Assembly (NCBI RefSeq): GCF_003334255.1
Contig: NZ_QOWU01000151.1
Source of the DNA: Escherichia coli
Lineage (GTDB): Bacteria; Pseudomonadota; Gammaproteobacteria; Enterobacterales; Enterobacteriaceae
Reading direction: 5' to 3' (one strand)
Length of the DNA: 1,744 nucleotides
Made by a program: the position numbers and the translations under genes. Below, one piece after another: positions 450 through 569 of the stretch (the stretch's first letter is position 1; every line of letters begins with the position of its first letter). The notes under the pieces were generated by a model, which worked only from the letters and a program-made list of their open reading frames with translations, ran no database searches and was not told where the DNA came from.

Positions 450-472
450 ACAAAAAAACCGCTGGCGCGGTT
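450..472 (-). terminator. candidate Rho-independent terminator on the minus strand
   Basis: Minus-strand RNA reads AACCGC-GCCA-GCGGUU (6-bp stem with 4 GC pairs, 4-nt loop) followed by UUUUUGUG; the plus strand has a run of seven A at 452..458. The stem is short, so this is tentative. It is not a plus-strand terminator, since the plus-strand 3' flank is GTGCGC. Confidence 0.35.
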
Positions 473-493
473 GTGCGCTACGTTTGTCAGCAG

Positions 494-508
494 GCTGCGA
501 AACCCGGC
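494..508. repeat. direct repeat GCTGCGAAAC copy 2 (494..503), fused to AACCCGGC (501..508), which also occurs at 373..380
   Basis: 494..503 is identical to 318..327. 497..508 (GCGAAACCCGGC) matches 369..380 (GCAGAACCCGGC) at 10 of 12 positions. Confidence 0.3.
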
Positions 509-569
509 ACCCGTTTTATGAGGTGCAGCGGAAATGTAACCCGACACGACGAGCGCTGGCAAGCGGTTT

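Follow-up and report, generated by a model that had tools for sequence, protein, structure and literature searches.

The small RNA IsrK is a structural homolog of the SeqA RNA of satellite phage P4, and the C4 RNA is a homolog of the CI RNA of P4 (PMC4825925; PMC3632133; PMC10111431). In Salmonella, the Rho-independent terminator of IsrK is supported by experiment and is partly read through into the downstream genes (PMC4825925). The IsrK RNA of Salmonella Gifsy-1 and the SeqA leader of P4 belong to the Rfam family RF01394, whose members consist of a first hairpin, a second one with seqA exposed in the loop, and a terminator hairpin followed by a U-tail. Typical of the family is expression from its own promoter as an RNA of roughly 75 nt that binds Hfq. 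The CI RNA of P4 and the C4 RNAs of P1 and P7 (RF01695) mediate antisense immunity through targets called seqA and seqC or, in other systems, a1 and b1. The hallmarks of P4-type RNA immunity are a segment of C4 complementary to two sites, one upstream and one downstream of it, and a block of downstream genes that depends on CI and acts by premature termination or on translation.

The DNA analyzed here, a stretch of 1,744 nucleotides from Escherichia coli hereafter called the window, corresponds to the early region of a P2-like prophage of the P88/Xuanwuvirus type that adjoins dmsABC. P2-like phages of this type are its closest phage relatives, and lambdoid Stx, Rha and antirepressor phages match the region only in part. 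E. coli DETEC-S792 matches the window at 100% identity; among 5,426 complete E. coli genomes, about 1,280 have a match of lower identity. In the close relatives designated H3 to H15 (e.g., NZ_CP060083.1, 3381498-3383724), the match is split in two and extends over about 2,230 bp, compared with the 1,744 of the window, which means that an insertion of about 485 bp, with additional small genes annotated in it, is present.

The minus strand of the window carries a P4-type RNA immunity cassette, in which a promoter is followed by an isrK/SeqA RNA (526 to 452), a C4/CI RNA (416 to 329), seqC, a derepression-protein gene and a replication gene. Both RNAs were identified as full-length Rfam matches above threshold: the isrK-like RNA scored 67.2 bits with RF01394 (gathering score, 50; E = 9e-14; positions 1-77 of the 77 in the model), and the C4 RNA scored 80.4 bits with RF01695 (gathering score, 45; E = 1e-15). 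The seqA core, UUCGCAG, lies in the loop of the second isrK hairpin (495-501, minus strand) and is complementary to seqB, CUGCGAA, within C4 (351-357, minus strand). A second UUCGCAG, which forms part of the direct repeat D17, lies just 3' of C4 (319-325, minus strand) and constitutes seqC, the other target of the 7-nt seqB; a segment of C4 is thus complementary to one site upstream and one downstream. The three elements were assigned by direct reading, since RNAduplex of the whole C4 RNA against isrK yielded uninformative long duplexes. The isrK and C4 pair is present in all 13 related loci scanned as well as in P4, whose leader downstream of P_LE is matched by the isrK model and whose cI region is matched by the C4 model. 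Relatives have different specificity loops, which is what distinct immunity types would lead one to expect.

The elements of the cassette belong to known families, and the finding is largely known biology. As in Gifsy-1 and P4, the isrK RNA comprises three hairpins, the last of which is a Rho-independent terminator, it is located directly upstream of C4 on the same strand, and its promoter is at the same distance. The locus differs from these systems in its host, a P2-like prophage, and in its downstream cargo. The first gene 3' of the RNA cassette (51-272, minus strand; PF25738, phrog_3688) codes for a derepression protein of 73 residues and is followed by a hypothetical gene and then by the replication endonuclease gene. 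In P2-like prophages of E. coli, including the CP-933T-type prophages of O157:H7, a P4-type cassette, complete with promoter and terminator, thus immediately precedes the derepression-protein gene, with the replication endonuclease gene two genes further on. Upstream of the cassette, also on the minus strand, are genes for a DUF4406 protein, a Dam methylase and an exonuclease.

Recognition of the two RNAs is of value for annotation, as protein-coding features in RefSeq overlie these RNA genes. Protein-coding or pseudogene annotations ("ash family protein," "hypothetical protein," or, in P4, "cI gene product") cover isrK and C4, with no RNA feature, at L005 1385-1654, L009 1037-1654, L007 1394-1657 and, for P4, L018 1169-1585; phage F039 (L010) is the sole one in which both RNAs are annotated. 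In the window, RefSeq places a hypothetical protein of 215 residues, WP_032326233.1, on the plus strand at 473-1120 (L001 12473-13120), with a start that falls over isrK and its promoter. A PHROG match (phrog_6315, E = 1.6e-65) spans residues 6-154 of the form that begins at the ATG at position 656. The annotated start at 473 is therefore probably over-extended. The plus-strand gene at 656-1120 itself looks like a lineage-specific insertion, divergent from the isrK promoter.

Within this cassette, a sequence-only reading had singled out two related sequences, at 457-472 and 552-568, as two copies of a hairpin-forming element that would act either as oppositely oriented weak terminators or as paired binding sites. 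Our analysis indicates that they are very probably the terminator and the promoter region of isrK, that is, the two ends of a single minus-strand transcription unit. Copy 1 (AACCGCTGGCGCGGTT, 457-472) was correctly taken for a minus-strand terminator. Its RNA folds as the stem-loop AACCGC-GCCA-GCGGUU, with six base pairs, of which four are G-C, a 4-nt loop, and a U-run that extends to position 452 and totals seven residues. Intrinsic terminators are expected to have a G+C-rich stem of at least 5 bp and a loop of 3-8 nt ahead of a U-run, all of which are found here, and the site was called terminator-like on the minus strand (-18.2 kcal/mol, z = -4.1). It also coincides with the last hairpin and U-tail of the full-length Rfam isrK match. 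Among the 20 lineages that were folded, the stem co-varies, with AACCGC/GCGGUU, GACGC/GCGUC, ACACGC/GCGUGU and AGCCGC/GCGGUU as its versions. The lineages were folded one by one because a MAFFT alignment of the terminators put the stems out of register.

The minimum free energy fold further revealed a two-tier structure (446-478, minus strand), in which an outer stem formed by GCGCAC (478 to 473) and GUGCGU (451 to 446) closes over the U-tract. This outer stem was found in 20 of 20 lineages folded (loci L014-L151, with P4 as L018), with differing but mutually complementary sequences such as GCGCAU/AUGCGU, CGAUAC/GUAUCG, CGACAU/AUGUCG, GGCGAU/AUCGUC and GCGUAC/GUACGC. Part of it extends beyond the Rfam isrK model, and only read-through RNA can form it.

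Copy 2 (AGCGCTGGCAAGCGGTT, 552-568, with T's continuing through 571) has a different identity. A promoter scan of the minus strand placed a -35 hexamer, TTGCCA, at 557-562 and a -10 hexamer, TACATT, 18 nt downstream at 533-538. The -10 hexamer stops 7 nt short of the 5' end of isrK, and the promoter is the equivalent of P4 P_LE. Given this location of the -35 hexamer, copy 2 consists of the hexamer itself, the first bases of the spacer and the CCGC just upstream, and its plus-strand T-run is the complement of the A-tract of the promoter. The upstream promoter element, ACACAAAAACCGCTTGC (559-575, minus strand), comprises this A-tract at about -45 to -41, CCGC and the start of the -35 hexamer; it carries both the T-run and the 3' arm of copy 2, and it is the partner of 450-466 in an inverted repeat discussed below. 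The hexamers lie at a spacing within the 16-18 nt of sigma-70 promoters and are at the right place with respect to the 5' end of the RNA, although the core is weak, with four of six consensus positions in each.

Comparison of related loci argues for a promoter. The -35 hexamer TTGCCA is invariant in nine of nine P2-like relatives, and an alignment of nine P2-like prophages showed invariant hexamers around different spacers, GCGCTCGTCGTGTCGGGT in the window and TGCCGCAATCAGTCAGGT in the others. In 78 further loci of the P2 type, which represent 22 promoter haplotypes, five of the six positions are invariant in each hexamer, the -10 hexamer reads TACATT or, in two loci, TACAGT, and the spacer is always 18 nt long, while 15 of its 18 positions vary. 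Fixed hexamers at fixed spacing around a variable spacer are the pattern typical of a promoter. Promoter-like pairs are found in all other lineages too, equally far from the RNA start but with other hexamers (TTGACT/TATATT, TTGATT/TACACT or TTGACG/TAAAGT). The class seen here, with A-tract, TTGCCA, 18-nt spacer and TACATT, is absent from P4 and the lambdoid versions, as is its inverted repeat with the terminator.

The hairpin of copy 2 fares differently in these comparisons. Its stem, CGCT/AGCG around a GGCA loop, is built from the -35 region and the first spacer bases, so that its second arm falls in the variable spacer and the hairpin is not conserved; most relatives read TTGCCATGCCGCAATC at this place, with the second arm replaced. 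The 4-bp stem is incidental. The proposal of two hairpin copies was thus right in that both sequences are present and related, but the second of them is not a conserved hairpin.

By homology, a sigma-70-type promoter would start the isrK/SeqA RNA at about position 526, and most transcripts would stop at copy 1 to give an RNA of about 75 nt carrying seqA. The C4/CI RNA would likely derive from transcripts that read through. If the cassette works as in P4 and Gifsy-1, pairing of seqB with seqA and seqC would then hold down the derepression-protein and replication genes. The promoter would fire constitutively, and its A-tract is a probable proximal UP-like element that might offset the weak hexamers. 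The consensus of the proximal UP subsite is A-rich at about -46 to -38, and the present arrangement resembles sigma-70 promoters with such an element in having a run of five to seven A's directly upstream of a weak -35 region, and conserved hexamers with a variable spacer. Unlike what a simple UP element, whose role here is putative, would obviously require, the flanking CAC and CCGC are also conserved.

The alternative put forward in the sequence-only reading, that the two copies are weak terminators of opposite orientation, is highly improbable. On this model, copy 2 would stop rightward antisense transcription across isrK. On the plus strand of the window lineage, the 4-bp stem is indeed followed by T5, and a longer fold reaches -17.2 kcal/mol (z = -2.3; on the minus strand, z = +0.8); the corresponding site in P4-like satellites, moreover, has a 6-bp stem (TTGCCG/CGGCAA), with T6 following 4 nt later. 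Yet the stem is below the 5-bp threshold of the scan, so that copy 2 went uncalled, and the extended fold consumes the U-tract as a stem strand. In several members of the sub-lineage to which the window belongs, the ACAC/GTGT pairing that extends the stem is disrupted, and most relatives are left with a 3-4-bp stem in a different register. Nor did the promoter scan detect a promoter-like site on the plus strand to the left of copy 2, where the plus-strand ORFs match no recognized gene. Copy 2 coincides with the -35 hexamer and A-tract of isrK, and is probably not a terminator. We give equally little credence to the idea that both sequences are operators for a DNA-binding protein, one over the isrK -35 hexamer for repression and the other at the terminator, perhaps with looping of the intervening isrK. 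It would account for two near-identical sequences of 15-17 nt separated by about 109 bp, one of which covers a -35 hexamer, and for the conservation of the non-A positions. However, neither arm has internal dyad symmetry, the centers are about 10.4 helical turns apart and hence out of phase, and the terminator arm is fully accounted for by the constraints on the RNA. No candidate protein is specifically associated with the repeat, as the upstream genes differ among loci that share it, and P4 immunity itself is RNA-based. The suggestion of paired protein-binding sites found nothing in its support.

With the two sequences assigned to the promoter and the terminator of isrK, their resemblance needs to be considered separately. 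It is real: only 0.07% of windows simulated with a Markov model contained any match to the motif CGCTGGC-N0-3-GCGGTT, and an inverted match of 15 of 17 positions to 450-466 within 224 nt has a probability of about 3e-4, which puts the probability of a chance resemblance at about 3e-4 to 7e-4. Both sites share CGCTGGC...GCGGTT as had been proposed, but with gaps of 0 and 2 nt rather than 1-3. Searched for elsewhere, as had been suggested, the motif has no further site in the 25.7-kb prophage locus; among 238 loci, both copies occur in about 14, all in the window's own sub-lineage, and the rest have the terminator copy alone, which is present in nearly all P2-type loci. Because of the palindrome in copy 1, both a direct and an inverted reading of the similarity are possible, and the gapless one is the inverted. 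It corresponds to the repeat I2, which joins 450-466 and 559-575 (17 nt, 88% complementary) and in which CACAAAAA(AA)CCGCT upstream of the -35 hexamer is opposed to AGCGGTTTTTTTGTG at the terminator, the latter comprising the 3' arm, the U-tract and the following GTG. In most relatives the inverted repeat is perfect over 15 of 15 nt, with CACAAAAAAACCGCT upstream of and into the -35 hexamer.

The upstream element is far more conserved than the spacer. CAC-A5/7-CCGC is nearly invariant in the 22 promoter haplotypes; its non-A positions, in CAC and CCGC, show two singleton variants in eight positions, as against 15 variable positions of 18 in the spacer. The outer edge of the element is where homology starts between prophages with different upstream genes. 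The inverted repeat is found in one promoter class only; none of the lambdoid versions has it, nor do P4 and several other lineages, including L143 and L140, and it was for this class alone that the duplex energy was an outlier relative to shuffled sequences (z -3.4 to -6.5, dG -19 to -25). This confinement implies one origin and no independent covariation. Scans of IMG/VR and species-representative genomes found no compensatory changes in the repeat, and the two variants of the upstream element, CCAC and TAC, are both uncompensated. Among IMG/VR patterns for such variants, G or T as the first base after the A-run retrieved the satellite class only, and a base other than C at the second position retrieved nothing; a search for distant P2-like prophages by way of the derepression protein returned only relatives of at least 80% identity. 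A candidate covariation in P4-like satellites (CAT-A6-GAGC vs. GCGTC-T7-ATG) was rejected, as the same promoter also occurs with GTG and GTA flanks and the comparison with shuffles gave z of about -1. A MITE-like unit of about 125 bp with terminal inverted repeats was likewise discarded: no target-site duplication was seen in the flanks that were read, and lambdoid homology begins at the transcription start and runs past the terminator. The duplication invoked in the sequence-only reading is plausible in the form of an inverted copy, within a repeat limited to one promoter class; such a copy of the 3' strand of the terminator probably arose once in the P2-type promoter class and would now be part of the promoter.

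A perfect 15-nt repeat is improbable by chance, and something beyond a promoter and a terminator may therefore be selected. One possibility, compatible with the preferred assignment and adding to it, is that the inverted repeat is a functional RNA element, although we regard this as unlikely. Transcripts started upstream, in the early operon, would contain CACAAAAA(AA)CCGCU, and those started at the isrK promoter would lack it. The element could pair with AGCGGUUUUUUUGUG, that is, the 3' arm of the terminator, the U-tract and the outer-stem strand, so that a long-range helix around isrK would replace the two-tier hairpin, and read-through, processing (by RNase III, for instance) or the accessibility of seqA would depend on the promoter of origin. 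In addition to the non-random nature of the repeat, which is almost unchanged beside a variable spacer, and the outlying strength of its complementarity, the genetic context of the relatives speaks for this. There, the gene upstream of the isrK promoter is on the same strand as isrK, so that early-operon transcripts would carry the upstream element, and no terminator-like structure was noticed ahead of it by reading, as distinct from a terminator scan. For the window, L002 and L085, upstream-initiated RNA is predicted to adopt the long-range helix at equilibrium, by a margin of 4 to 10.6 kcal/mol over the best structure lacking it. In the window itself, on the other hand, the nearest gene upstream of the promoter is on the opposite strand, and against such a switch count also the single origin of the repeat in one promoter class, the lack of significance in the P4-like satellites and the uncompensated variants. 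Antitermination is kinetically unattractive as well, for the adjacent 5' arm competes for the 3' arm and should win, and the termination decision would precede any pairing of the A-tract with the U-tract. Classical antiterminators sequester the 5' arm of the terminator before the 3' arm is made. Although the pairing of an upstream segment with one terminator strand would recall attenuators, and a helix enclosing the small RNA would recall RNase III stems that flank an RNA, the upstream element here differs in competing for the 3' arm and in showing no covariation. A post-transcriptional role of the pairing, in processing or in the exposure of seqA, is conceivable. If functional, the mirror repeat of the promoter upstream element and the terminator would be a compact cis-acting RNA device that ties termination or processing to the promoter of origin. 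That it is a selected RNA switch by which a P2-like phage bypasses or reprograms its own RNA immunity in lytic growth, without an antiterminator protein, seems a slim prospect.

Several minor observations were made on cassettes of this type. In L080 and L159, which have the promoter type of the window, the 5' arm of the terminator reads AGGCGC instead of AACCGC and the 3' arm is unaltered, which should weaken the isrK terminator. The seqA loop of L080, AUUUCCACC, mismatches both seqB (GUUGAGAA) and seqC (UUCUCAAC) of its C4 region, suggesting a recombinant cassette. Tandem isrK(-C4) cassettes are present in the viral contigs L040, L051, L058, L062 and L067, each with two matches to isrK hairpin 1 on the same strand, 656-863 nt apart. 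The hairpin-1 pattern was also matched in short contigs of metagenome-assembled genomes of Gram-positive gut bacteria, L142 (Collinsella sp.) and L144 (Lachnospiraceae bacterium); the promoter-isrK stretch of L142 is identical to that of the P2-like prophage type of E. coli, and these contigs are likely mis-binned or contaminating. In the window, the gene for the DUF4406 protein, which is nucleoside 2-deoxyribosyltransferase-like (1408 to 1094, minus strand), converges with the plus-strand ORF at 656-1120; the two overlap by 27 nt (1094-1120), and a plus-strand terminator-like hairpin (1100-1115) is located within this overlap. The same plus-strand ORF contains a perfect 13-nt inverted repeat, I6, formed by CATGATTGCGCGC (961-973) and GCGCGCAATCATG (1064-1076), with 90 nt between its arms.
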